From Candidatus Pacebacteria bacterium CG_4_9_14_0_2_um_filter_40_15 (GTDB lineage Bacteria; Patescibacteriota; Microgenomatia; UBA1400; PJMF01): 63,065 bases of DNA. The DNA lies in assembly GCA_002788675.1 (NCBI GenBank), contig PFRS01000002.1, positions 1 to 63,065 on the forward strand, written 5' to 3'. The position numbers were made by a program, and so were the translations under genes. The notes under the pieces are model-generated. The model did not search any database. It was not told the origin of the DNA and was given only the letters and a program-made list of their open reading frames with translations. This document shows, piece by piece, positions 1 through 48,915 of the stretch (positions within the stretch are counted from its first letter, which is position 1; each line of letters opens with the position of its first letter).

Positions 1-357
<357 letters not shown>

Positions 358-4101: not shown

Positions 4102-5070
4102 TTAATTAAACTCAGTAAACAGGTTATATTCACCAATTTCGAGCATTTGTTTTCGGTAATTCTGGAAATCATGTGTATAGAAGGAAGGTAAGATGGGGTC
4201 AAACTCAGGATTCATGCTGACTGCTTTAGGAATATCCTTGAGAGCTAGTTTGCCATAGTACAGATCTGCGAGTGCGAAGTTTTGTGTGTGCATCCACTTC
4301 CACACATCAACTAATCCTTCAAAGTACACTAAATCTTTGGTGTAACCACCGGGCTGTGAGGTATCTTTCAAGCCCCTTTTTTGACGAAAGACAGCTGTCC
4401 ATCGACGTTCTGGATTTTCTATATAAGGTTCAAGTGCATTCCAAGTTTCAACGAAGGAGCCATGTACAGCAGTATCAACCGCTAAGTACCGAATAGCAGA
4501 GATAAAGGCAGATTTATAGCTGTGTGGGATAAGTGAGTGGAGTGAGGCAATACCTTCTTCAGTTTTAAGATATTCAGAAAAGCCATAGTGCTTTTTCTTT
4601 TTGAACCAAGGTTGCTTTTCATAGTTGATTCTTCGCAGCGCATGCGTGCCAACTTCGTGATACAACATTCCAAGTAAGTCCTCATTTCTAAAATCAGCTG
4701 GCAATCGAAGTTTAATCGTATCACTGCTGATGGTAGTTCTAGAAACAAATGAGTTTGACCAGATAAGAGAGTATCTGTCTTCTAACTTGTGCATTTTTAA
4801 GAATGACCTGATTCGACTTTCAACATCCTCTTTAGACAATTGTCTTCCTTTTGTCATGTATAAATCTTGTTCATTGCGACCAAAGTAGGTTTTTTTTAAG
4901 ATAGCCACGGCCAGGTCTAAATATTTTTTTTTAGGAACGCCATACGTTTGTAATTTTTCTGAAGAAATTTCTTCTTTGTATAAAAATTGTGGATTGTAGG
5001 TTTTGTTGGCAAAAAACTTTTCTTTTTCTTCAAGTAAGTTTATGGGAGTAATAGTTTGGAGAAAGGACAT
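4102..5070 (-). CDS. DUF1704 / QEGLA-motif protein (predicted metallo-carboxypeptidase-like)
   Basis: HEVGTHALR zinc-binding-like motif and EEGIASL (QEGLA-type motif). The ATG at 5070 avoids overlap with the upstream ATP-grasp stop at 5078. Confidence 0.7.
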   Translation of the reverse strand: MSFLQTITPINLLEEKEKFFANKTYNPQFLYKEEISSEKLQTYGVPKKKYLDLAVAILKKTYFGRNEQDLYMTKGRQLSKEDVESRIRSFLKMHKLEDRYSLIWSNSFVSRTTISSDTIKLRLPADFRNEDLLGMLYHEVGTHALRRINYEKQPWFKKKKHYGFSEYLKTEEGIASLHSLIPHSYKSAFISAIRYLAVDTAVHGSFVETWNALEPYIENPERRWTAVFRQKRGLKDTSQPGGYTKDLVYFEGLVDVWKWMHTQNFALADLYYGKLALKDIPKAVSMNPEFDPILPSFYTHDFQNYRKQMLEIGEYNLFTEFN

Positions 5071-5077
5071 ACAAATA

Positions 5078-6358
5078 TTATTCTGTGTCACCAATTAAGA
5101 AACCAGTGGTATCTTTTCGGCCCAGTTCAACCTTATGTTTGGATCGATCAAGTCTTCTGGTAACCACCATAGCAGTTTTATGTTTTTTATCTTTAACAGA
5201 GTAGGTAACTTCAACAACGGGGACTTTGCCTTCAACCTCTTTTTGTTGCCAGAGCAGGTCATCAAAATCAAGCAAACCAAGTTCCTCTGCAAGTTTCATA
5301 CTGATAGCAGAACGACTTCGTCCTGTATTGACTAACCCGGTGACAATTTGTTTTTCTTTATGATCACCGTAAACGGTTACGGTTGGTTCTGTCGGAATAA
5401 TGGTTATACCACCTTCAGCTTTTATGTTATCACTGAAGTGTTCAGCAAAAAGTGCTTGAGCAATTTTCACACCGTGTTCGGCATCGCGGACATCGAGCCC
5501 TTCTACTCTTTCGAGTCTGCGTTTAAGGCCAGATCTATTTGCAAGTTGGATGGAGAGGCCAGGAAAACCATTAAGTTCAACGATCATGGGGCCTTTTTCT
5601 GGGTGAATAAATAAGTCTGCTCCCATAAAGGTGTATCCAGCCACAGTTGCTGCTTCTACTGCTGTCTTAAGGACCTTTGACCATTCTGGGATCATGATGC
5701 CGTTTACCTTTTTATTATTGTGTGGAAATCGTGAAATATGCGTACTTTTGCCATAAAGGCCATAGGTTGAGATGCCAGTTGCTAGATCAATACCGAGTGC
5801 AATAGCTCCTTTATCAAGATTTGCTCTACCATGAGATTCTTTTGTGGGAATACGTGCCATGGCCATAATTGGCACTGAGTTGAAAACAATAACGCGAATA
5901 TCAGGAGTACCTCTATATGAATATTTGAGTAGAGCTGGGTGGGAAGGAATCATTTCCTCCACAATTGCTTTATGGGATGAACCCCAAGTGCTAAATTCAC
6001 CATCAAGAATATTACTCACGTGAAGGTCCATGTCGTCCTCCGAAAGGTGTTCATTATCTGAAGTAATCCAAGTGGATTGATTTGCGATTTTTTTGGTAAC
6101 AACAATAATTCCTTTGCCTGCACTGCCACTAGCTGGCTTGATAACAAAGGGTGCTGGAATAATTTCCCAATTTACATCATCCAAATCTTGAAGTGATGTG
6201 AAGACATGATACACCTGGGCGGTTGGTATATCATGGCTATTAAGTAATACTTTGGTCTGCAGTTTAGAAAAGCCGTAACTTTTACTCTTTGAGCTATTCA
6301 GACGGGTATACTTATACCGAGCGTTCATTCCCAAAATATGTGATGGAGTAACTGCCAT
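5078..6358 (-). CDS. alpha-L-glutamate-ligase-like ATP-grasp enzyme fused to a C-terminal RimK-associated retropepsin-like domain
   Basis: N-terminus ILGMNARYKYTRLNS and VIKPASGSAGKGI (ATP-grasp). C-terminus VNTGRSRSAISMKLAEELGL ... LGRKDTTGFLIG resembles the PF05618-type aspartyl protease fold. Confidence 0.75.
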   Translation of the reverse strand: MAVTPSHILGMNARYKYTRLNSSKSKSYGFSKLQTKVLLNSHDIPTAQVYHVFTSLQDLDDVNWEIIPAPFVIKPASGSAGKGIIVVTKKIANQSTWITSDNEHLSEDDMDLHVSNILDGEFSTWGSSHKAIVEEMIPSHPALLKYSYRGTPDIRVIVFNSVPIMAMARIPTKESHGRANLDKGAIALGIDLATGISTYGLYGKSTHISRFPHNNKKVNGIMIPEWSKVLKTAVEAATVAGYTFMGADLFIHPEKGPMIVELNGFPGLSIQLANRSGLKRRLERVEGLDVRDAEHGVKIAQALFAEHFSDNIKAEGGITIIPTEPTVTVYGDHKEKQIVTGLVNTGRSRSAISMKLAEELGLLDFDDLLWQQKEVEGKVPVVEVTYSVKDKKHKTAMVVTRRLDRSKHKVELGRKDTTGFLIGDTE

Positions 6359-6369
6359 GAAATTCCTTA

Positions 6370-7323
6370 TTACTCTTCGATTATCGATCTAAATCTAAGT
6401 CGCTCACTCAGTCTTAACCCCACAAATTTGCCAATCAGAGCATTTAGAAATGCCACAACTATGATGAGGAGTTCTGGCTCAGAAACGGCAAAAATTTGGA
6501 GTGGCTCCCATCGAAGGAAGAAGCTAGCTATGACTGCTAGACCAAGTGTTTCAAGAGTAAGCATTAATGCTTCAGATTGCTTAGTTCGTGCTTGAGCATC
6601 CAAGAAATTTTCAGCCAAGAGCACCAAAATCAAAATTGGAAAAATACTTACACTCATAAGGGTGACCAAGTTTATGTAGGGTGCCAAAACCATTAAGCCA
6701 AAAATACCCAAAGACACAGTCCAGAGCATTAATGCGGTACGTGGCAGGTATGGCAGATGTGTTTTCCTGACCAATTTTTTGGCTACCACAGCTGTAGCTG
6801 CAATTGCTAAAAAGAGTATCAACCCTTCAACTACTCCAGTTGAGGCTAGTGCAATTGAAAGCACTGCCGGAATATAGACACCAAAACCTCTAAGACCAAC
6901 AATATGACGTGAAGCAGCTATCATCGTCACAACGAGTGGGAACAGGAGTAAAAGCACCAAAACGTTTGGCTGTACCCCTCCACTCACAGCTTGACGCATG
7001 GCATGCTGCATAAAGTTATTCCAAGTTATTGGACCTGGAGGATTTTGGTCCATGTAGGCAACCAACTTGTTTGTCTGCTCACCTTTGGCTTCAGTAATGT
7101 CTTTGTCAATTTTTTCTTTGATTTCTTGATCGACCTCTGCCGAGCGTGATGCTACAGATCCAGATATAGTTGCTGCACCTTCTTTAGTAGCAGTTTCATC
7201 AATATTGAGATCAACAACCTCGATGGTTGCATCATCAAGATTTTGTGCAGAAACTTGTGTAGATGCACTAATACCTACTAACAGAAGGAGGGCAAAAAGG
7301 CTGGAGAAAATGACTTTTTTCAT
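6370..7323 (-). CDS. 7TM membrane protein of the family usually fused to an inactive transglutaminase (7TM_transglut-like)
   Basis: Signal peptide, about 7 TM helices, and a C-terminal PELLIIVVAFLNALIGKFVGLRLSERLRFR signature. Confidence 0.65.
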   Translation of the reverse strand: MKKVIFSSLFALLLLVGISASTQVSAQNLDDATIEVVDLNIDETATKEGAATISGSVASRSAEVDQEIKEKIDKDITEAKGEQTNKLVAYMDQNPPGPITWNNFMQHAMRQAVSGGVQPNVLVLLLLFPLVVTMIAASRHIVGLRGFGVYIPAVLSIALASTGVVEGLILFLAIAATAVVAKKLVRKTHLPYLPRTALMLWTVSLGIFGLMVLAPYINLVTLMSVSIFPILILVLLAENFLDAQARTKQSEALMLTLETLGLAVIASFFLRWEPLQIFAVSEPELLIIVVAFLNALIGKFVGLRLSERLRFRSIIEE

Positions 7324-7359
7324 AACGATAGTATACCTTACTCTCTTGTATATGTATCT

Positions 7360-7719
7360 TTAGATAAAGACGCCTACAAATGACTGCATGATGCTGATCA
7401 TAAATGCAGTTGCGACAAGAGTCCAGAATTGACTGAGCTGTGTCCCGAATAACACTAAATCGCCAATATGAAACCCCGGTACCAAGTAGGTAACCAGCCA
7501 CAGAAGGAAAATATTCAGAAAAGCAGAAAAGAGTCCCAGCGTAACAATGTTTATTGGCAAGAACAGCAGTTTGAGGATTGGTTTGATGACTGAAAATAAC
7601 AACTCAAAGACTATGGCCGAAAGGATGAGTGCGATAAGACTTGTAAACGTCACATGAGGCAGTAGCGTCAGCGAACCCAATACAATTCCTGTTCTGATCA
7701 GAGGTTTTAATAATTTCAT
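7360..7719 (-). CDS. DUF360 / phage-holin-4-family small membrane protein
   Basis: 119 aa, 3-4 TM helices, LVPGFHIGD motif typical of the family. Confidence 0.55.
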   Translation of the reverse strand: MKLLKPLIRTGIVLGSLTLLPHVTFTSLIALILSAIVFELLFSVIKPILKLLFLPINIVTLGLFSAFLNIFLLWLVTYLVPGFHIGDLVLFGTQLSQFWTLVATAFMISIMQSFVGVFI

Positions 7720-7749
7720 ATGGCTAGTATACCATTTTCTTATGTGTGA

Positions 7750-9099
7750 TTATTTGAAGGCCGCCTTCGTCCGAAGTCTCGTATGTTGCTTTTTCGAGAA
7801 TCGATGTGCTTCATCTCGAATTTGTTGAATAAGTTTTAAACTGGGGTGAGACTCAGGCAAAGAAATAACATGGTAGTTTAGGCCCTTTAGATCTTTATCT
7901 GGACCGGGTGTGATAATTGGAATTATGATTCGATCAGGATTTTTTGCGATACCGATAATCGGAATACTCCAGTCCCAAACACTCAATGCAGAACGAATTT
8001 GGCCTTTTCCTCCATCAACCACTACTAGATTTGGCATTCCCCATTCAGGATGATTTTGTCTGCGAATAATAGCTTCTTTCATCATGTGATAATCATTTGG
8101 TGTGTTAAGTGAGCGAATGTTAAAGAGTCGATATTCTTCGAGGGCAGATGAGCCATTTATAAAAACTACCATGCCAACTGCAGGATTGGTGCCTTGGGTG
8201 TTACTTACATCGTACCCCTCAATTCTTTCAAGTGGATAGGTTGCAGGAAGGTGCGCATAGGTTGTTAAAATCTTTCGCAAGTAGACAAGAGCATTTTTTG
8301 ATTCTGAAAGTTGTAGCGTGGGAGACATTAAATCTGGTTTTAAGCGGTAGTTATGTTGCGTTACTTCAGAGATTAGCTTGATTTGATCTCGAAAGAGTGC
8401 TGCTTTTTCAAAAGCCTCTTCTGTAACAGCCTCCTTCATTTCTAATTCTAAATTTTTAATGACGGTATTTTTTTTACCTTGAAGAAAAAGTGTGAGTTGT
8501 TTGATTGTGGCTTGGTACTCCTCTTTTGAACATTTACCCAAACAAGACCCAGGACATTGTTGAATGTGATAGAAAAAACATGCTGTGTGCTGTTTGGGAG
8601 TTGGTTCCCACTTTTTGTTGCACCAAGGAAAAATTTTTCGAGCAATCTTCAGTACTTCTGTAACTTTGTAAGCACTGGGAAAAGGCCCAAGAATTGTGCC
8701 ATCAAGCTGTTTCGTAATTATTTCTCTTTTGCGAACTTTTTCTACACGAGGAAAATCTTCTTTGGTGATTCTAATGTAGAGATTGCTTTTATCATCCTTG
8801 AGAAGCACATTGAAAGGAGGTTGATAGGTGCGGATTAATTCAGCTTCTACAAGTAAAGCCTCAAGTTCACTGTCAAGAACTCTATGTTTAAGTTGCACGG
8901 CAGTCGTAACCAGTTGCCCAATGCGAGAGCTCAGTCTTTTGAACTGAGTATACGATCTGACTCGGTTTAGTAAGTTTTTGGCTTTTCCAACGTACAGGAC
9001 ATTATCGTCGCTGTCTAAAAACCAGTATACTCCCGGCGATGAGGGCAAGGATGACACTGCTCCCTGCCAACGCAATGATGATTGTTTGGTCTGTGACAT
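7750..9099 (-). CDS. uvrC: excinuclease ABC subunit C, short form (449 aa)
   Basis: GIY-YIG motif GVYWFLDSDDNVLYVGKAKNLLNRVRSY, UVR domain, RNase H-like endonuclease domain. It ends before the usual C-terminal (HhH)2 region. The start is uncertain (ATG 9099, TTG 9075 or GTG 9057). Confidence 0.85.
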   Translation of the reverse strand: MSQTKQSSLRWQGAVSSLPSSPGVYWFLDSDDNVLYVGKAKNLLNRVRSYTQFKRLSSRIGQLVTTAVQLKHRVLDSELEALLVEAELIRTYQPPFNVLLKDDKSNLYIRITKEDFPRVEKVRKREIITKQLDGTILGPFPSAYKVTEVLKIARKIFPWCNKKWEPTPKQHTACFFYHIQQCPGSCLGKCSKEEYQATIKQLTLFLQGKKNTVIKNLELEMKEAVTEEAFEKAALFRDQIKLISEVTQHNYRLKPDLMSPTLQLSESKNALVYLRKILTTYAHLPATYPLERIEGYDVSNTQGTNPAVGMVVFINGSSALEEYRLFNIRSLNTPNDYHMMKEAIIRRQNHPEWGMPNLVVVDGGKGQIRSALSVWDWSIPIIGIAKNPDRIIIPIITPGPDKDLKGLNYHVISLPESHPSLKLIQQIRDEAHRFSKKQHTRLRTKAAFK

Positions 9100-10870
9100 A
9101 TTCTACTATCTGTGGTCCTGCAGTCCCTTGAACTGTGGTTGCTTCAAACGTACTCGTTCCATTTGAGAAGGTAAACACTGGCTGAATTGCAACCGTTTTT
9201 GGTAGCGCAATTGCTTTTTGATATGCTGTAACGGTACTATTTTTTCGCTCGTAAGGTAGAAGCACTGGTAACGAGTCGATAGCTGATGAAATAGTTACGT
9301 CAGCATCATCAGAAGTAAGTTTGAGTGATACATTATACCAGGCTTGACCAGTCTTGTTTATGATGTGAGCAGTCATGATACCTGGCAGAGGGATACCAAA
9401 TACTCTTTTAGGCTCAAGTGTTACTTCAACAGCTGGTTGAATTTCAGGGAAATCTGTTGCAAATGTCACCTCTACATCCTGAGCATTTTCGTTTCCTGTG
9501 GCTTTATAACTCCCTGCTGGGTATGGTGTTGAGCTCGACTCTCCATTAATAGCAAAAACAATATGGTTTAAGTCAAAGAGTGTAAAATAATCAATTCCTC
9601 GGGTGGTATTTCCCCAAGTTGGGTCAACCGGTATCCAAAGCTGCTTTTGATCATTCCAGTATTCAGGCCATGCATGCAGCAAATCACCTTGAAAACTGGA
9701 TGGTCTGAGAGAACTATTTTCAGCATAGCCATATCCAACATTTCTACGTGCCGGTATTCCTGCTGCTCGGGCGACTGTGATAAATGTGTCGCTGAATTCT
9801 TGGCACACAGCAGCTGTAGGATTTTCAAATGCTTTTACCGCTCCCATGCGAGCACTGCCTGCACTTAAATCCCCTTTGCTGTAACTAAGTGTTTCAACAA
9901 TGTAGTCGTATATATCTTGAGGTGTTTTATATTTTCTAACCAGATCCTGAATGACGGGGGCATCAGTGTTCCAATACTCAGCTTTATCTTTCATTTTTTT
10001 TGTGGGAACGGGTACTGGAACAGAAGTATTTGGATCGATAGAAACACGAGCCAGAGCTGATACGTACACATTTGTAGCTGACGTTGGGGAAATTTGGTAG
10101 GTTGCAATCCAGTTCCCATCAGCATCTACTTTTAAATCTTCGGGATAGGGATCAATATCACGAATATGGATTTTTTGGAAAGCTGTGTCGGGAGGCAACG
10201 CAATTTGGGCAAGCGCTGTACCACTTGTCGAGTTTTCTAATTGATAGCGAAGTGTCAATGAATATATCTGACTATTTCCAAAGAGCGCAGTGATAGCTGA
10301 ATCCTTATGATCTTCAAAGGTAAGTACAAAGGCATTGTCTTTTGTTTCAACTATTTTTGGTTCAGGGCTGACTCTGGAAGGGTAGCCAAATTTTTCAGGA
10401 ACAGAGATGATCGATTTGTGTGAGCTGTAGGCGGCTGCTTCAGGTGATTGCGGAACATGCATTTCAAGTACAGCACCAGCTAAAGTCGAGAGATTTGTGT
10501 TAACGTACTCGATCGAGAAAGTTCTGGTTTTCCCCTCACCCACGACCTCATCAGGAAAATCAATGGCGATGCTCGTGCCGTCACCATCTTGCACAACATT
10601 GGGAATAAGTATGTCGTTATTATAGCGAACAATGACGTTTTTGAGTTCGGGGTAACTGGTTTTCAGAGCATACTGTGTGAGAAAAATTGTGGGCTCTTTG
10701 TTGGTAATTTCAAACTTGTGTGAAACTTTTGTCACTCCTACAGCATCAACGGTGTATGTGGAGGTCAGACGAGTATCAAAATTTTCATTCGCAAATACTT
10801 TTGTAGCACTTACAGCTAAAAAGCAGAAAAGCACCGCAAAGCTAAGAGTGATTTTTTGAAATATCTTCAT
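9002..10870 (-). CDS. membrane-anchored transglutaminase-like cysteine protease/crosslinking enzyme
   Basis: Signal peptide from the ATG at 10870 (MKIFQKITLSFAVLFCFLAVSA). Core motifs CQEF, LLHAWPEYW and IPVDPTWG give an intact Cys-His-Asp triad. C-terminal TM helix. Confidence 0.8.
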   Translation of the reverse strand: MKIFQKITLSFAVLFCFLAVSATKVFANENFDTRLTSTYTVDAVGVTKVSHKFEITNKEPTIFLTQYALKTSYPELKNVIVRYNNDILIPNVVQDGDGTSIAIDFPDEVVGEGKTRTFSIEYVNTNLSTLAGAVLEMHVPQSPEAAAYSSHKSIISVPEKFGYPSRVSPEPKIVETKDNAFVLTFEDHKDSAITALFGNSQIYSLTLRYQLENSTSGTALAQIALPPDTAFQKIHIRDIDPYPEDLKVDADGNWIATYQISPTSATNVYVSALARVSIDPNTSVPVPVPTKKMKDKAEYWNTDAPVIQDLVRKYKTPQDIYDYIVETLSYSKGDLSAGSARMGAVKAFENPTAAVCQEFSDTFITVARAAGIPARRNVGYGYAENSSLRPSSFQGDLLHAWPEYWNDQKQLWIPVDPTWGNTTRGIDYFTLFDLNHIVFAINGESSSTPYPAGSYKATGNENAQDVEVTFATDFPEIQPAVEVTLEPKRVFGIPLPGIMTAHIINKTGQAWYNVSLKLTSDDADVTISSAIDSLPVLLPYERKNSTVTAYQKAIALPKTVAIQPVFTFSNGTSTFEATTVQGTAGPQIVEYVTDQTIIIALAGSSVILALIAGSILVFRQRR

Positions 10871-10931
10871 AGTATCTACAGGATGTATATATACCCTATT
10901 GTAGCGCATTCTCTCTATGAATGTGTTGGGG

Positions 10932-29909: not shown

Positions 29910-29990
29910 GCCGAAGTGGCGGAATGGTAGACGCGCACGGTTTAGGACCGTGTAGAGTAATCTGTGGAGGTTCAAGTCCTCTCTTCGGCA
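29910..29990 (+). tRNA. tRNA-Leu (anticodon TAG)
   Basis: Manual fold: acceptor GCCGAAG/CTTCGGC, anticodon stem CACGG/CCGTG, loop TTTAGGA, long variable arm, T-arm GGAGG-TTCAAGT-CCTCT. CCA is not encoded. Confidence 0.9.
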
Positions 29991-30032
29991 CCTTTATTTT
30001 GAATATGCCATTTGGCATATTCAAAATAAAGG
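29991..30032. repeat. perfect 20-bp inverted repeat directly abutting the tRNA-Leu 3' end
   Basis: CCTTTATTTTGAATATGCCA-tt-TGGCATATTCAAAATAAAGG. Confidence 0.9.
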
Positions 30033-30129
30033 TTACATAAGCATAGAACTTTTGCCGCAGGCGAGAGTCTGCACTTCGAGTCACGAAGTGACACGAGAAA
30101 TGTATCCAGACACGAAGTAGTCTGGGATA

Positions 30130-30143
30130 CCTCTCTTCGGCAC
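30130..30143 (+). repeat. 14-nt exact copy of the tRNA-Leu(TAG) 3' end (pseudo-3'-end)
   Basis: CCTCTCTTCGGCAC matches 29978-29991 (T-stem 3' half, acceptor 3' strand, discriminator and one more base). Confidence 0.85.
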
Positions 30144-30152
30144 ATATAAAGA

Positions 30153-30177
30153 AAAAAGCGCCCTCTCGGGCGCTTTT
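30153..30177. terminator. bidirectional rho-independent terminator
   Basis: AAAAAA-GCGCCC-tctc-GGGCGC-TTTT. Confidence 0.8.
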
Positions 30178-30199
30178 GTAATACACACTTCAATTTTGA

Positions 30200-33646: not shown

Positions 33647-33814
33647 ATGTCTGGAAAAGAACGAGTGAGAGCTGCTCGCATAGATGCTTTTGGATTACTG
33701 ATTTCTCAAGAAATTATAGCAAATTTGGCAGGCAAAAAGGAAAAGAAAGAAGTTAAGCTTCCTGCGCAAGGTGTTCAGAGTAGCACCCCCACTACCACAA
33801 AAAATGAACGATAG
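33647..33814 (+). CDS. possible small protein (55 aa)
   Basis: ATG preceded by GAAAGG. Not in the ORF track (below 60 aa). Lys/Thr-rich, no family recognised. Confidence 0.25.
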   Translation: MSGKERVRAARIDAFGLLISQEIIANLAGKKEKKEVKLPAQGVQSSTPTTTKNER

Positions 33815-33827
33815 ATTTTTTAAATAA

Positions 33828-34082
33828 TTACTTTTTTAAGATCATTTCCATATCAAATGCAATTCGCTGATGTTGCTCTTTGGCATAGTGAATTGCGTCT
33901 TCAACTCCTTTATTATAAAGCGAGTTTCCAATCCGATCTAAAAACATATCAAGAATGTCTTCAGCTGCAATAAGGCCAATTTCATCATCCATCTCGGTAG
34001 AAAAGAAGTTAATAATTTCTCTGGTTGCAGCTGAACGCTGGTGTTCGCTAAGCAGACTTAGTTTTGGATTTTTATTTTTCAT
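33828..34082 (-). CDS. DUF2164-like small protein
   Basis: REIINFFSTEMDDEIGLIAAEDILDMFLDRIGNSLYNKGVEDA matches the DUF2164 pattern. The ATG at 34082 is the likely start. Confidence 0.5.
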   Translation of the reverse strand: MKNKNPKLSLLSEHQRSAATREIINFFSTEMDDEIGLIAAEDILDMFLDRIGNSLYNKGVEDAIHYAKEQHQRIAFDMEMILKK

Positions 34083-34124
34083 AAGTAATAGTATACAAAA
34101 AAACACGCTGATGCGTGTCTTTTA

Positions 34125-34147
34125 TTTTATGAGCGGGAAACGGGGCT
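34125..34147 (-). repeat. exact 23-nt copy of the tRNA-Gly 3' end plus trailer (pseudo-3'-end 2)
   Basis: TTTTATGAGCGGGAAACGGGGCT is identical to 34385-34407. Confidence 0.9.
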
Positions 34148-34222
34148 TACCCTCGTCAGGCTCAAACTATAAATACTGTGAGAATTCGCTTGATCGGGCA
34201 CAAGCCGCCCCTTTTTATATAA

Positions 34223-34241
34223 ATGAGCACGAAACGGGGCT
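34223..34241 (-). repeat. degenerate copy (17/19) of the tRNA-Gly 3' end (pseudo-3'-end 1)
   Basis: ATGAGCACGAAACGGGGCT versus ATGAGCGGGAAACGGGGCT at 34389-34407. Confidence 0.8.
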
Positions 34242-34291
34242 TACGACTCGCTGCTATCTGTACCTACTTAGGGAAGCTCACATGCACTAGG
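34241..34291 (-). repeat. 51-nt conserved module shared with the tRNA-Gln locus
   Basis: Ungapped alignment to 54935-54985 gives 44/51 identities, including GGAAGCTCACATGCACTA. Confidence 0.85.
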
Positions 34292-34391
34292 GTGACTCGC
34301 ACAGTGTGCTCGTGTGCCCGTCGCGAACCATGTGATCTAGCTCAATGGCTCCAGTCATAAAAAAAACACACCGTAGTGTGCATTTTTTATG

Positions 34392-34464
34392 AGCGGGAAA
34401 CGGGGCTCGAACCCGCGACCTTCTCCTTGGCAAGGAGACACTCTAGCCACTGAGCTATTCCCGC
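34392..34464 (-). tRNA. tRNA-Gly (anticodon GCC)
   Basis: Manual fold: acceptor GCGGGAA/TTCCCGC, anticodon stem TCTCC/GGAGA, loop TTGCCAA, T-arm GCGGG-TTCGAGC-CCCGT. Confidence 0.9.
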
Positions 34465-34537
34465 GCGTGTAACATCCTGGATTATACTATCTCATTCCTG
34501 TCTTGTGAATACTGGTTTAAGGTCGTATCATTGATGT

Positions 34538-36406: not shown

Positions 36407-36480
36407 GCGCCAGTAGCTCAGCGGATTAGAGCACCGGTCTTCGGAACCGGGTGTCGGGGGTTCGAATCCCTCCTGGCGCA
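36407..36480 (+). tRNA. tRNA-Arg (anticodon TCG)
   Basis: Manual fold: acceptor GCGCCAG/CTGGCGC, anticodon stem CCGGT/ACCGG, loop CTTCGGA, T-arm GGGGG-TTCGAAT-CCCTC. Confidence 0.9.
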
Positions 36481-36485
36481 CAAAT

Positions 36486-36512
36486 AAAAAACTAGCTTAT
36501 GCTAGTTTTTTT
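36486..36512 (+). terminator. rho-independent terminator after tRNA-Arg
   Basis: AAAAA-AACTAGC-ttat-GCTAGTT-TTTTT. Confidence 0.7.
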
Positions 36513-36542
36513 ATTTGTTGGGTCGGTGAGTTATTTGAAAGT

Positions 36543-36586
36543 GTTCGCACCAGCAAGAAGTGAGCACCTGCGAACTTCCTGCTTAG
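36543..36586 (+). repeat. 44-nt conserved module shared with the tRNA-Gln locus
   Basis: GTTCGCACCAGCAAGAAGTGAGCACCTGCGAACTTCCTGCTTAG matches the reverse complement of 54981-55024 at 41/44. It has the same orientation and nearly the same distance from the tRNA terminator (35 versus 34 nt). Confidence 0.85.
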
Positions 36587-48439: not shown

Positions 48440-48841
48440 GGGCAGTTCACCTATGAGTATATATTGATTTGCAGCTCTATATCAATGGTGAAAGGCTTTG
48501 AGTCATGGTTTAGATGAAGTCTAAACAAATGACATTAGCGCCAATATATATACTTACACTCAATTTTTAAAGTTCTTTGGATTTGTTGCCTGACAGTCTT
48601 CAGCTTTCAACAATTCTAAAATAAGATTTGTGGAGGATTTTTTTGGCAAAGGGATTTTTTAGAGATGAATCTGATTGGAGTTGCTCGTGAGTCGACTGGA
48701 ACTTACATCTAGCCTTCAGCTTAGTTCGGGCTGTTAGAAGTTTTGGAAGAAGTTATTTTTATCAAAGGGACGAACTGACCGCTCAATTTAAACATTTATT
48801 TTACACACATAAAAAATAGCTGGTTGCTAGTTTTTTTTGTG

Positions 48842-48915
48842 TGGGTCAAGTGGGACTCGAACCCACGACACCCTGCTTAAGAGGCAGGTGCTCTAACCGA
48901 CTGAGCTATTGACCC
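48842..48915 (-). tRNA. tRNA-Lys (anticodon CTT)
   Basis: Manual fold: acceptor GGGTCAA/TTGACCC, anticodon stem CCTGC/GCAGG, loop CTCTTAA, T-arm GTGGG-TTCGAGT-CCCAC. Confidence 0.9.

Follow-up and report, generated by a model that had tools for sequence, protein, structure and literature searches.

The pseudo-3′ ends that follow the tRNA-Gly(GCC) gene in the window, the whole stretch of 63,065 nt analysed here, are the tails of two tandem copies of a structured module of ~130 nt, and this module trails many tRNA genes in the Patescibacteria, a group of ultra-small bacteria. A complete unit begins with a short locus-specific leader, continues with a conserved core of ~90–105 nt and ends with a tail that copies the preceding tRNA gene. 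Mobile DNA classically lands at the 3′ ends of tRNA genes, and partial tRNA copies are usually taken for dead scars. Here, the partial copy ends a defined structured unit, which is found behind different tRNA genes and always agrees with the tRNA that it follows. If the module is mobile, it would be a minimal element that retargets by copying its target, and it would imply a T-loop-directed enzyme not previously known, in organisms whose genomes are very small. Should it be an RNA gene, it would represent a new tRNA-coupled RNA class with a built-in address. Tools that map islands by tRNA fragments will mistake these units for island boundaries.

Two tandem modules behind tRNA-Gly(GCC)

Both ARAGORN and Rfam (tRNA, 68 bits) place an intact tRNA-Gly(GCC) at 34391–34464 on the minus strand. 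The repeated segment is the 3′ part of this gene from A58 onward (34385–34407), which spans A58-G59-C60 of the T-loop, the 3′ strands of the T stem and the acceptor stem, the U73 discriminator, and a 7-nt trailer; CCA is not encoded. The 23-mer TTTTATGAGCGGGAAACGGGGCT has two exact occurrences, at 34125–34147 and 34385–34407, while 0 chance matches are expected from 100 dinucleotide shuffles with 3 mismatches permitted. A third, degenerate copy of the segment lies at 34219–34241 and agrees at 18 of 23 positions, or at 17 of 19 over 34223–34241. Both copies run on into TTAC on the plus strand (in tRNA sense, GTAA precedes the copy), and two elements made of a hairpin and a T-run are present at the locus, at 34366–34381 and 34103–34118. 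An earlier note on this DNA had described a tRNA-Gly(GCC) with an exact 23-nt copy and a 17/19 copy, which is borne out by ARAGORN, Rfam, the exact search, and the shuffles. Its account of a repeat running from part of the T-loop to the 7-nt trailer, of a common TTAC junction, and of two hairpin and T-run elements agrees with the sequence and with a terminator scan. No ORF was found between tRNA-Gly and its repeats. Plus-strand ORFs starting MSGKRG or MSTKRG were rejected as coding, with an immediate stop in the module behind tRNA-Gln; they exist only because CAT in the trailer reads as ATG on the opposite strand. The 721-nt tRNA-Gly region is found at 100% identity in nine independent public assemblies from this population, and therefore the repeat array is not an assembly artefact. 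A tenth assembly of this population covers 503 nt of the region, also at 100%; being identical, the 10 assemblies offer no filled/empty pair for fixing the insertion boundaries.

The tRNA is directly followed by its trailer and a bidirectional terminator A (34359–34390, minus strand), which was detected by the terminator scan and as inverted repeat I4 and forms an extended palindrome of an A-run, the hairpin at 34366–34381, and a T-run. Terminator A is nearly identical to CATAAAAAACACACAGTAGTGTGTTTTTTT, the terminator after tRNA-Gly at the empty site of the relative L029, and the added DNA is placed downstream of it because of this match. By its sequence, terminator A looks native to the tRNA-Gly locus; this, and the place of the copy at the 3′ terminus of a defined unit, lay beyond the sight of the earlier reader. 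Terminator C, with the hairpin at 34103–34118 and a T-run (34097–34124, minus strand; terminator scan), lies directly upstream of a DUF2164 gene (33828–34082, minus strand; Pfam PF09932). It resembles terminator A at 74% over 27 nt (repeat family D2), and its stem differs by one compensatory pair. The minus strand of 34095–34392 folds with z = −4.5.

Between the two terminators lie the two units, an intact module B and a degenerate module C, both on the minus strand. The 29-nt leader of module B (34330–34358), delimited by coordinates and alignment, has first bases, ACTGGAGC, in common with a module of L018 (L018x). The 88-nt core (34242–34329; nhmmer E = 2e-34, and pair counts) is arranged in the order GGTTCGCGAC, hairpin a, CCTAGTGCATGTGAGC, a variable AT-rich stretch, and AGCGAGTCGTA. 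Its identity is 90% to L018x, 81–84% to three type-1 Arg cores and one Ser(GGA) core, 72% to the Gln core of the window, and 66% to the Gln core of L035. Module B is completed by the degenerate tRNA-Gly copy as its tail, from A58 to the trailer (34219–34241), with two changes in the acceptor 3′ strand. Module C is a short unit (34148–34218) in which a weak hairpin, GGGC..GCCC, is followed by sequence with the end GACGAGGGTA, resembling the end GAAGGGTA of the Lys module of L041; it has no significant similarity to the type-1 core. Its tail is the exact 23-nt tRNA-Gly copy, from A58 to trailer position +7 (34125–34147).

Five of the nine tRNAs in the window bear a module or its remnant; besides tRNA-Gly, these are tRNA-Gln, -Leu(TAG), -Lys, and -Arg. 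A second full module (54918–55052, minus strand) lies behind tRNA-Gln(TTG) (55087–55158). It comprises a leader at 55026–55052, a core at 54936–55025 with a different 10-bp hairpin in place of hairpin a, and a tail at 54918–54935 that equals tRNA-Gln from A58 to +2 at 18/18 positions. Behind tRNA-Arg(TCG) (36407–36481), a truncated module (36517–36586, plus strand; nhmmer E = 0.029) combines an Arg-type leader with the replacement hairpin that is also seen in the Gln module, and it is without the central block, the 3′ block, and the tail. The other two modules have divergent cores and the same layout as the core family. The module behind tRNA-Leu(TAG) (29910–29992) occupies 30031–30144 on the plus strand, where 98 nt of structured sequence lead to the tail ACCTCTCTTCGGCACA (30129–30144, 14/16), and terminators flank it at 29993–30030 and 30152–30179. 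The module behind tRNA-Lys(CTT) (48841–48915) is decayed (48687–48804, minus strand), with a degenerate tail AGTTCCAGTCGACTCAC (48687–48703) and a retained ATTGAGC/GTTCG motif, as in other Lys modules.

Architecture and spread of the module family

In every complete module, the tail reproduces the local tRNA from T-loop A58 through the discriminator and 0–7 nt of trailer. The left boundary of the repeat is fixed at A58, while the right boundary is variable, and the longest exact run within the tail is 11–23 nt. A complete unit is always in tRNA sense and follows directly on the terminator that belongs to the tRNA, and in 10 distinct complete units, the copy starts 134–156 nt after the end of the tRNA. 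The target is preceded by GGTTCR, and the core ends in CGTR immediately before the tail. The conserved blocks of the core are ..GAAGA..GTTCGCGAC, CCTAGTGCATGTGAGC, and AGCGARTCGTR. The core is closed by a helix of the GGUUCGCGAC block with the GUCGUGAAUC end, its internal hairpins are exchangeable, and its ends are imperfect inverted repeats, GGTTCGCGAC and GTCGTGAATC. A consistent 3′ terminator after the tail was not found across the modules. Of 105 non-redundant tRNA loci, 17 have their last 15 nt copied (≤2 mismatches) 60–260 nt downstream on the same strand, and these represent 13 modules and 4 neighbouring real tRNAs. The controls with the first 15 nt, the middle 15 nt, the upstream regions, and the antisense strand gave 0–3 matches each in the same 105 loci.

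In the type-1/2 alignment, 74.8% of the cells pair, compared with 24–51% in slid controls, and three pairs change on both sides, which was reached by 7 of 500 shuffles. A G-U pair is found in the closing helix in seven of eight sequences (A-U in the eighth), and the sense strand is therefore favoured. Stems of the modules are retained while their sequences are replaced, and three Lys modules with a common leader have three different 7–8-bp stems at one place. The RNAalifold consensus on eight sequences is weak because the replaced hairpins misalign. In addition, the leader pairs with the tail at 6–7 of 7 positions in the Arg and Lys modules and in the Gln module of the window, and this pairing co-varies with the tRNA at 7:66 (L030 versus L040) and 6:67 (L041 versus L035/L047), which is suggestive of a leader-to-tail acceptor stem in the Arg, Lys, and Gln modules. 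For the whole family, such a stem gives p = 0.12–0.15 (own-versus-cross duplex energies; ungapped 7-mer pairing), and a T stem is absent from the modules.

At 61–91% identity, the core recurs behind tRNA-Gln and, truncated, behind tRNA-Arg in the window, and behind tRNA-Arg, -Ser, and -Gln in relatives. It is present behind at least four tRNA species (Gly, Gln, Arg, and Ser), carried by tRNA-Gly and -Gln in the window, tRNA-Arg in three related species, tRNA-Ser(GGA) in L017, and tRNA-Gln in L035. The search of relatives for further copies and empty sites, which the earlier note had proposed, yielded both. In L001 and L029, an identical tRNA-Gly is followed by nothing more than a terminator, slightly different tRNA-Gly genes in L002/L019 and others are likewise without a copy, and tRNA-Arg, -Gln, and -Lys lack modules in several relatives. 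The cores are not grouped by tRNA identity: module B (wGlyB) and L018x are 90% identical and the L017 Ser and L030 Arg cores are 91% identical, whereas pairs at the same tRNA are lower (L002 Arg versus L040 Arg, 77–78%; Gln of the window versus L035 Gln, 62%). Unlike the cores, the tails always match the local tRNA. Module B has its leader start and core in common with L018x, yet it ends in a Gly tail, while the L018x tail is not Gly and matches none of the tRNAs examined; therefore, the tail is made from the local tRNA. Arg modules occupy the same position in four species, and their tails follow each species' own tRNA, including U66 of L040 and its trailer. Architecture and spacing are kept across genomes in which the neighbouring protein is only 66–90% identical. 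In the right-hand copies, the tRNA part is perfect (Gly C, 23/23; Gln, 18/18), whereas the adjoining trailer- or terminator-like bases are ~65–70% alike. States of decay include the truncated Arg and decayed Lys modules of the window and a drifting Gln tail in L035.

Pfam scans of 50 of the 56 window ORFs of ≥110 aa revealed no integrase, transposase, reverse transcriptase, or TnpB, and for these ORFs, the earlier statement that the 63 kb contain no recombinase holds. Pfam matches to IscB, Cas12k, Cascade, or Tn7 genes were also absent from these ORFs, and none of the module loci examined, the gene tables of relatives included, has an integrase separating its tRNA and core. Only tRNAs and a 16S fragment passed the Rfam gathering-score scan of the window, and Rfam 15 scans of three modules at E-value thresholds of 1–10 gave nothing above chance level, HEARO (IscB-associated) included. 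The core was not found in viral contigs (two pattern scans) or in phage and plasmid records (blastn), no autonomous copy was seen, and a metagenome scan returned only two exact matches to a 20-nt core stretch. Overall, the module family has no counterpart in Rfam, the phage and plasmid collections, or the literature searches.

Several other identities were considered and rejected. ARAGORN at relaxed thresholds gave no credible call of a tRNA, tmRNA, or intron-containing tRNA. No core motifs of a hammerhead or other small ribozyme were recognized on reading the sequence, and none were reported by Rfam. The leader is not a decayed 5′ half of the cognate tRNA, as its local alignment to that tRNA is no better than to other tRNAs. 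Copying from a mature tRNA by reverse transcription, following the logic of a primer-binding site, was rejected because the tails have genomic trailer bases instead of CCA; the sole CCA exception among the tails is L017 Ser (..CCGCCA).

Origin and function of the module

The explanation that we favour, although tentatively, is a small non-autonomous module aimed at the tRNA T-loop, whose tail would be copied from the target tRNA and which would persist as a structured sense-strand RNA. The core would have moved or been copied between tRNA loci and between genomes. The tail would not be carried along; installation of the module would generate it from the local tRNA gene, giving a direct repeat of target origin, much like a target-site duplication or the tRNA end displaced at attR. 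The enzyme would act in trans and be encoded outside this window. Once installed, the unit could persist for long, apparently as structured sense-strand RNA (or single-stranded DNA), and its tail would stay identical to the tRNA while the neighbouring sequence drifts. Judging from the sequences compared, we count in favour of the mobile module the same core at different tRNAs, the local tails, the empty sites, and the regular spacing, as well as the tandem array at Gly, the decay states, the non-clustering cores, the fixed A58 boundary, the empty-site type of terminator next to tRNA-Gly, the use of tRNA 3′ ends by integrating DNA at tRNA-Arg of L039, and the persistence and structure of the units. 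The miniature non-autonomous element proposed in the earlier note is upheld in part, by the core at at least four tRNA species, the empty sites, and the absence of grouping by tRNA; against a mobile module, we count the absence of an enzyme among 50 of the 56 long ORFs, of an autonomous copy, and of a filled/empty pair. Moreover, the native terminator sits between the left repeat and the module, whereas a plain target-site duplication would directly flank the insert, and therefore the duplication would be ~60 bp long or the mechanism a different one. The perfect tRNA part of the tails, set against adjoining bases that are only ~65–70% alike, points to a constraint on the tail, which would not be expected of a purely selfish scar. 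A host-beneficial RNA would account as well or better for units that are long retained at the same tRNA and undergo compensatory changes.

It is possible, with a lower probability, that the modules are a resident family of functional small RNAs, each a structured scaffold with a 3′ tail of ~11–23 nt that, from A58 into the trailer, is kept the same as the coding strand of the tRNA gene to which it belongs. Such a tail might serve as an address or guide by pairing with the template strand of the DNA (or with an antisense RNA) beside the invariant T-loop GGTTCR, it might mimic the pre-tRNA 3′ end, or leader and tail might together form a tRNA-like acceptor stem that is processed by tRNA maturation enzymes. 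New copies would arise by duplication, with tails reset by conversion from the neighbouring tRNA. The conserved architecture and spacing beside a diverging protein, the stems that outlast their sequences, the minus-strand fold, and the leader-to-tail pairing that covaries with the tRNA in the Arg, Lys, and Gln modules are all consistent with an RNA. So are the tails themselves: a perfect tail follows lineage-specific changes of tRNA and trailer while adjacent bases drift, its trailer bases indicate a match to the gene or precursor and not to the mature tRNA, and the CGTR that closes the core is unlike the T-loop TTCR before the target. However, there is no partner protein, no promoter evidence, no consistent terminator past the tail, and no Rfam family match, the leader-to-tail pairing is not significant family-wide, the cores do not group by tRNA identity, and the modules are dispensable, being absent, truncated, or decayed at many loci. 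The suggestion in the earlier note of an RNA module kept next to tRNAs is partly sustained, in that some units occupy the same tRNA in more than one species and their stems survive through compensatory changes. We consider it rather doubtful that the modules are expressed scaffold-plus-tail RNAs whose tail addresses the 3′ end of their own tRNA gene via the universal GGTTCR and that they form a new tRNA-coupled RNA class in the Patescibacteria. A tail of this kind could guide a trans-acting protein (for homing, attB occlusion, or regulation), or it could be part of a tRNA-like RNA handled by the tRNA maturation machinery.

It is unlikely that the units are ordinary tyrosine-integrase scars or CIME-like remnants, that is, leftover attL/attR arms in which the tail is the displaced original tRNA 3′ end and the core is the arm of attP to which the integrase binds. 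Direct repeats of the 3′ part of a tRNA, starting in the T-loop and lying behind the intact gene, are the textbook footprint of island and prophage integration (Islander paper, PMC4383910), and tandem islands with arrays of these repeats have been described at ssrA of Dehalococcoides (PMC3146451). Integrating DNA makes active use of tRNA 3′ ends in this clade: a fresh insertion at tRNA-Arg of L039 brought a foreign Arg 3′ end that is mismatched with the tRNA's own acceptor 5′ strand, and in L038, a split integrase lies immediately 3′ of a module tail. However, this core is lacking at the far ends of both the L038 integrase element and a 3.8-kb island in L018, no integrase separates tRNA and core in the module loci examined, and the terminator adjoining tRNA-Gly appears to be the native one. 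The left edge of module B carries no Ser-type repeat, although its core and leader start are closest to the L018 module, whose tail is not Gly. One core family at at least four different tRNAs would need integrase re-targeting each time, and neither constant unit size nor compensatory stem changes are expected of deletion remnants. Serial integrations that decayed almost completely, as the earlier note had considered, are not supported by a filler that is a conserved core at 61–91% identity; random deletion remnants would not be expected to show the regular spacing of 134–156 nt seen in 10 units.

The least probable explanation, which we regard as improbable, is a disrupted duplicate tRNA, with leader and tail as a second tRNA copy and the core as a small mobile insert in its T-loop, C56/R57 | A58 (MITE-like, an IS91- or IS200/605-like single-strand element targeting GTTC, or intron-like): GGTTCG/GTTC-like bases before the core and RA(N)NCC after it would restore a T-loop on core removal, the core ends are inverted repeats, a second T-loop-like CGAATC at the core end gives a GAATC-GT-GAATC junction, and the Lys leaders contain GGTYRGTAG, like tRNA-Lys positions 2–10. 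However, the leaders do not significantly resemble the 5′ portions of their tRNAs, complementarity between the T stem 5′ strand and the T-stem strand of the tail does not go beyond GG/CC, none of the modules has an anticodon arm, no core-less leader-plus-tail frame occurs among the 105 tRNA loci, and in a decaying pseudogene, the 3′ and 5′ portions should be lost equally fast.

Comparison with known systems

The modules and the tRNA/tmRNA islands of tyrosine integrases share an intact tRNA, same-orientation 3′ direct repeats from the T-loop, tandem accretion, and variable presence, and the intact tRNA with a displaced 3′ direct repeat that marks islands and prophages is found at the modules. 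Unlike such islands, the modules have no integrase or cargo, the unit is only ~130–170 bp, one structured core serves several different tRNAs, and the terminator next to the tRNA appears native and not element-borne. Neither an integrase inside the element nor an element-supplied tRNA 3′ end or adjacent DNA was found, terminator A being of the L029 empty-site type.

CIMEs and MITE-type elements are small, gene-less, and repeat-bounded, depend on an enzyme in trans, and occur in several copies per genome. The modules are likewise small, gene-less, repeat-bounded, and present in several copies per genome. The repeats and the absence of genes fit a CIME (a term used in PMC5704250), while scans of viral, phage, plasmid, and metagenome sequences gave no parent ICE/IME with this core. 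In contrast to CIMEs and MITEs, the several modules of one genome are not near-identical copies, the repeat on the right consists of tRNA sequence specific to the locus, and some modules are kept at the same tRNA across species with compensatory stem changes. A MITE is further disfavoured in that the exact run of 11–23 nt is tRNA sequence that does not directly flank the core and the window copies are at most 72% alike.

In transposon guide RNAs, a conserved scaffold abuts a variable guide equal to chromosomal DNA, and the target lies beside an invariant short motif. As in the omega RNAs of TnpB/IscB and in the tRNA-gene-targeting homing guides of CRISPR-associated transposons (PMC13565253, PMC11406308), the module scaffold abuts a stretch of roughly guide length equal to DNA at its own site, an invariant motif lies beside the target, and the unit sits at a roughly fixed distance downstream of the target tRNA. 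Unlike in these systems, TnpB, IscB, Cas, and Tn7 genes, transposon ends, and an Rfam omega or HEARO match are absent, the scaffold is only ~100 nt, and the matching target is an essential gene 45 nt upstream. The scaffold with a variable, guide-like stretch equal to DNA beside an invariant motif is a resemblance only.

The primer-binding sites of LTR retroelements copy a tRNA 3′ end up to A58. The module tail differs from these sites and from tRNA-like RNAs in its sense orientation, in having trailer instead of CCA in all but one case, and in the absence of a T stem. With the primer-binding sites, it shares the same boundary at T-loop position 58, and with tmRNA and viral tRNA-like 3′ ends, it shares the fusion of a tRNA 3′ strand to a larger structured domain.

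A tandem array of tRNA 3′-end copies behind tRNA-Gly

The tRNA-Gly(GCC) gene (34391-34464, minus strand) is followed by two partial copies of its own 3′ end. The exact 23-mer repeat of the earlier note was borne out, with two occurrences (34385-34407 and 34125-34147) against zero expected by chance, and it comprises T-loop residues A58-G59-C60, the 3′ strands of the T and acceptor stems, the discriminator U73, and seven trailer bases. The degenerate copy was recovered at 34219-34241 (18/23, or 17/19 within 34223-34241), as were the common junction, at which TTAC continues both copies on the plus strand, and the hairpins with T-runs at 34366-34381 and 34103-34118. Nine independent assemblies from the same population are 100% identical across 721 nt and a tenth is 100% identical over its 503 nt, which rules out an assembly artefact.

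Two units on the minus strand form a tandem array here. Unit B consists of a leader (34330-34358), a core (34242-34329), and a tail (34219-34241), and unit C of 34148-34218 with its tail at 34125-34147, followed by a terminator. The intervening DNA had been taken for non-coding filler; it has no conserved ORF, but the stretch before the degenerate copy is a conserved core, as 34241-34326 (minus strand) is 82.6% identical to positions 9166-9248 of L002, a contig from a related genome. The plus-strand ORFs 34129-34290, 34223-34360, and 34389-34472, which start with MSGKRG or MSTKRG, were rejected as repeat artefacts, since the tRNA trailer and acceptor give ATGAGCGGGAAACGGGGC when complemented; some such ORFs have been annotated by gene callers in public assemblies, for example a 59-aa ORF in L012.

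The adjoining DUF2164 gene (33828-34082, minus strand) has no counterpart in the corresponding syntenic stretch of the relative L001, in which the tRNA-Gly terminator is directly followed by a homologue of the 55-aa ORF at 33647-33814 (plus strand). The DUF2164 gene could be an insertion at tRNA-Gly in its own right, specific to this lineage.

A family of units with locus-matched tails

In L002, about 60 nt separate tRNA-Arg(TCG) from the downstream core, after which come a CGTA junction, common to this unit and the window Gly unit, and then a copy of the tRNA-Arg 3′ end. Scanning metagenomes with 20 nt of core yielded at least two further contigs: L017, with the 3′ end of tRNA-Ser(GGA) as its tail, and L018, whose tail matches none of the tRNAs compared. 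Each also matched a second window site, behind tRNA-Gln. In addition, a profile search located the core downstream of tRNA-Arg in three related species and, in a less closely related genome, downstream of tRNA-Gln. A scan for tRNA 3′ copies, which is independent of the scaffold and finds units irrespective of core, revealed units with other cores behind the window tRNA-Leu(TAG) and tRNA-Lys, the latter decayed, as well as tRNA-Lys units in three other genomes and a tRNA-Leu(CAG) unit in one. A unit or remnant thus accompanies 5 of the 9 window tRNAs. With about 0.6 Mb of related sequence as comparison material, 17 of 105 non-redundant tRNA loci had their last 15 nt copied downstream on the same strand (13 of the 17 being modules), compared with 0-3 matches for control segments, strands, and sides.

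Each unit lies after the extended palindromic terminator of its tRNA, in tRNA sense without exception. A short, locus-specific leader precedes a core with the conserved blocks ..GAAGA..GTTCGCGAC, CCTAGTGCATGTGAGC, and AGCGARTCGTR, and the tail runs from A58 through the discriminator and 0-7 trailer bases, with a longest exact run of 11-23 nt. The repeats are 149-171 nt apart from start to start, and 134-156 nt separate the tRNA end from the copy. At L017 150-175, the Ser tail ends in ..CCTCCGCCA, CCA included, while the tRNA 3′ end at the contig start reads ..CCTCCGCAT; this is the sole tail that could originate in a mature tRNA or a CCA-encoding gene. The tRNA terminators of the clade are long perfect palindromes of A-run, hairpin, and T-run with 17-19-nt arms that include the first trailer bases (window 34355-34392, 55053-55086, 36482-36516, and 29993-30030; L001 7215-7250). 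They also occur at empty sites and should stop transcription in both directions.

The core ends pair, GUUCGCGAC with GUCGUGAAU, in a helix that includes the first tail bases. On an alignment of eight sequences, 74.8% of the cells pair, versus 24-51% with the partners slid, and three pairs have both partners changed, a count that 7 of 500 shuffles attained. The sense strand is favoured by a closing-helix G-U pair, which seven of the eight sequences have (the eighth has A-U). The minus-strand fold of the whole Gly region is better than shuffles (z = -4.5), the plus strand being weaker (z = -2.4). Moreover, unrelated hairpins replace hairpin a in the window Gln and Arg units and the L035 Gln unit, and three Lys units with a common leader carry three different 7-8-bp stems at one position. 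Structure was therefore kept while sequence was replaced, which, with eight and three sequences respectively, is support rather than proof of retention.

Empty sites, core clustering, and apparent exchange

L001 and L029 have the identical tRNA-Gly with nothing but a terminator after it, and slightly different tRNA-Gly genes in L002, L019, and others likewise lack a copy. Several relatives have tRNA-Arg, -Gln, and -Lys without units. The window terminator next to tRNA-Gly is nearly identical to that of the empty L029 site; the added DNA therefore lies downstream of an apparently native terminator.

The cores group independently of tRNA identity. Across different tRNAs, the module B core is 90% identical to the L018 module and the L017 Ser core 91% identical to the L030 Arg core; behind the same tRNA, the L002 and L040 Arg cores share 77-78% and the window and L035 Gln cores 62%. 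Module B has the leader start of the L018 module yet a Gly tail, so its tail would derive from the local tRNA instead of being carried along. The window Arg and Gln units have one common replacement hairpin, whereas Arg units elsewhere have the hairpin of the module B core type, which points to an exchange within this genome.

We tentatively favour a small, non-autonomous module with the tRNA T-loop as its target. The core would be moved or copied from one tRNA locus to another, presumably by an enzyme acting in trans, and the tail would be produced from the target tRNA at installation, after which the module might persist in the form of a structured RNA of the sense strand or of single-stranded DNA. 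A purely selfish picture is countered by several features: Arg units occupy one common position in four species, their tails follow the tRNA and trailer of the respective species, U66 of L040 included, and the right-hand copies match without error over their tRNA part (23/23 and 18/18), the adjoining trailer/terminator-like bases being only about 65-70% alike. The main rival, a somewhat less probable one, is a resident small RNA of scaffold and tail, guide-like or tRNA-like, which explains the tail constraint and long retention better than a mobile module does but has no partner protein and presumes expression. Decay is visible as well, in the truncated window Arg unit, the decayed window Lys unit, and the drifting L035 Gln tail.

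Other elements at tRNA ends and known systems

The modules match no Rfam family, gave no call as tRNA, tmRNA, or intron-containing tRNA, and had no relatives in the phage, plasmid, and viral-contig records scanned. The reported lack of a recombinase in the window held for 50 of its 56 long ORFs, a search of which turned up no integrase, transposase, reverse transcriptase, or TnpB. In this clade, integrases are active at tRNA 3′ ends (L039 and L038), and the core is not present at the far ends of these elements. That the copies are classic att scars is improbable, and a duplicate tRNA disrupted by a T-loop insert is slightly more so; each of the two readings is at odds with at least one tested feature.

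Between two contigs of the closest relative, the tRNA-Arg region differs (L039 2380-2815 and L040 150-492). L039 has extra DNA, broken by an N run, right after the tRNA, whose 3′ end, CTCCTGG, is mismatched with the acceptor 5′ strand (GCGCCAA) of the same tRNA; CTCTTGG stands there in L040 and in both module tails. L039 looks like a fresh integration that brought in a foreign tRNA-Arg 3′ end. In L038 (10903-14600), different elements form a composite array at a single tRNA. About 480 nt with a small membrane-protein ORF follow tRNA-Leu(CAG); then come a 47-nt three-way-junction-like insert and a tail copy, and directly thereafter a split tyrosine integrase (141 aa + 75 aa), with a partial tRNA-Leu (variable arm onward) about 3 kb beyond. 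In L018 (5020-8929), 3.8 kb with five ORFs, one cytidine-deaminase-like and four without a Pfam match, separates tRNA-Ser(GGA) from a pseudo 3′ end, CACCTCCGCA, ahead of the module, and may be an island without integrase.

Elsewhere in the window, a minus-strand cluster (4102-10909) encodes a MATCAP-like carboxypeptidase, an ATP-grasp protein associated with sugar transfer, a 7TM protein (a type that mostly occurs as a fusion with an inactive transglutaminase), a holin-like protein, and a transglutaminase-core protein of 635 aa; this cluster has no connection with the tRNA modules. The 5′ end of a 16S rRNA gene (1-357, minus strand) is cut by the window edge.

The closest known systems are tRNA-integrating islands and tandem arrays (PMC4383910, PMC3146451), non-autonomous elements of the CIME/MITE type, and transposon-associated guide RNAs (PMC13565253, PMC11406308), each of which the modules resemble in part without clearly fitting its full definition.
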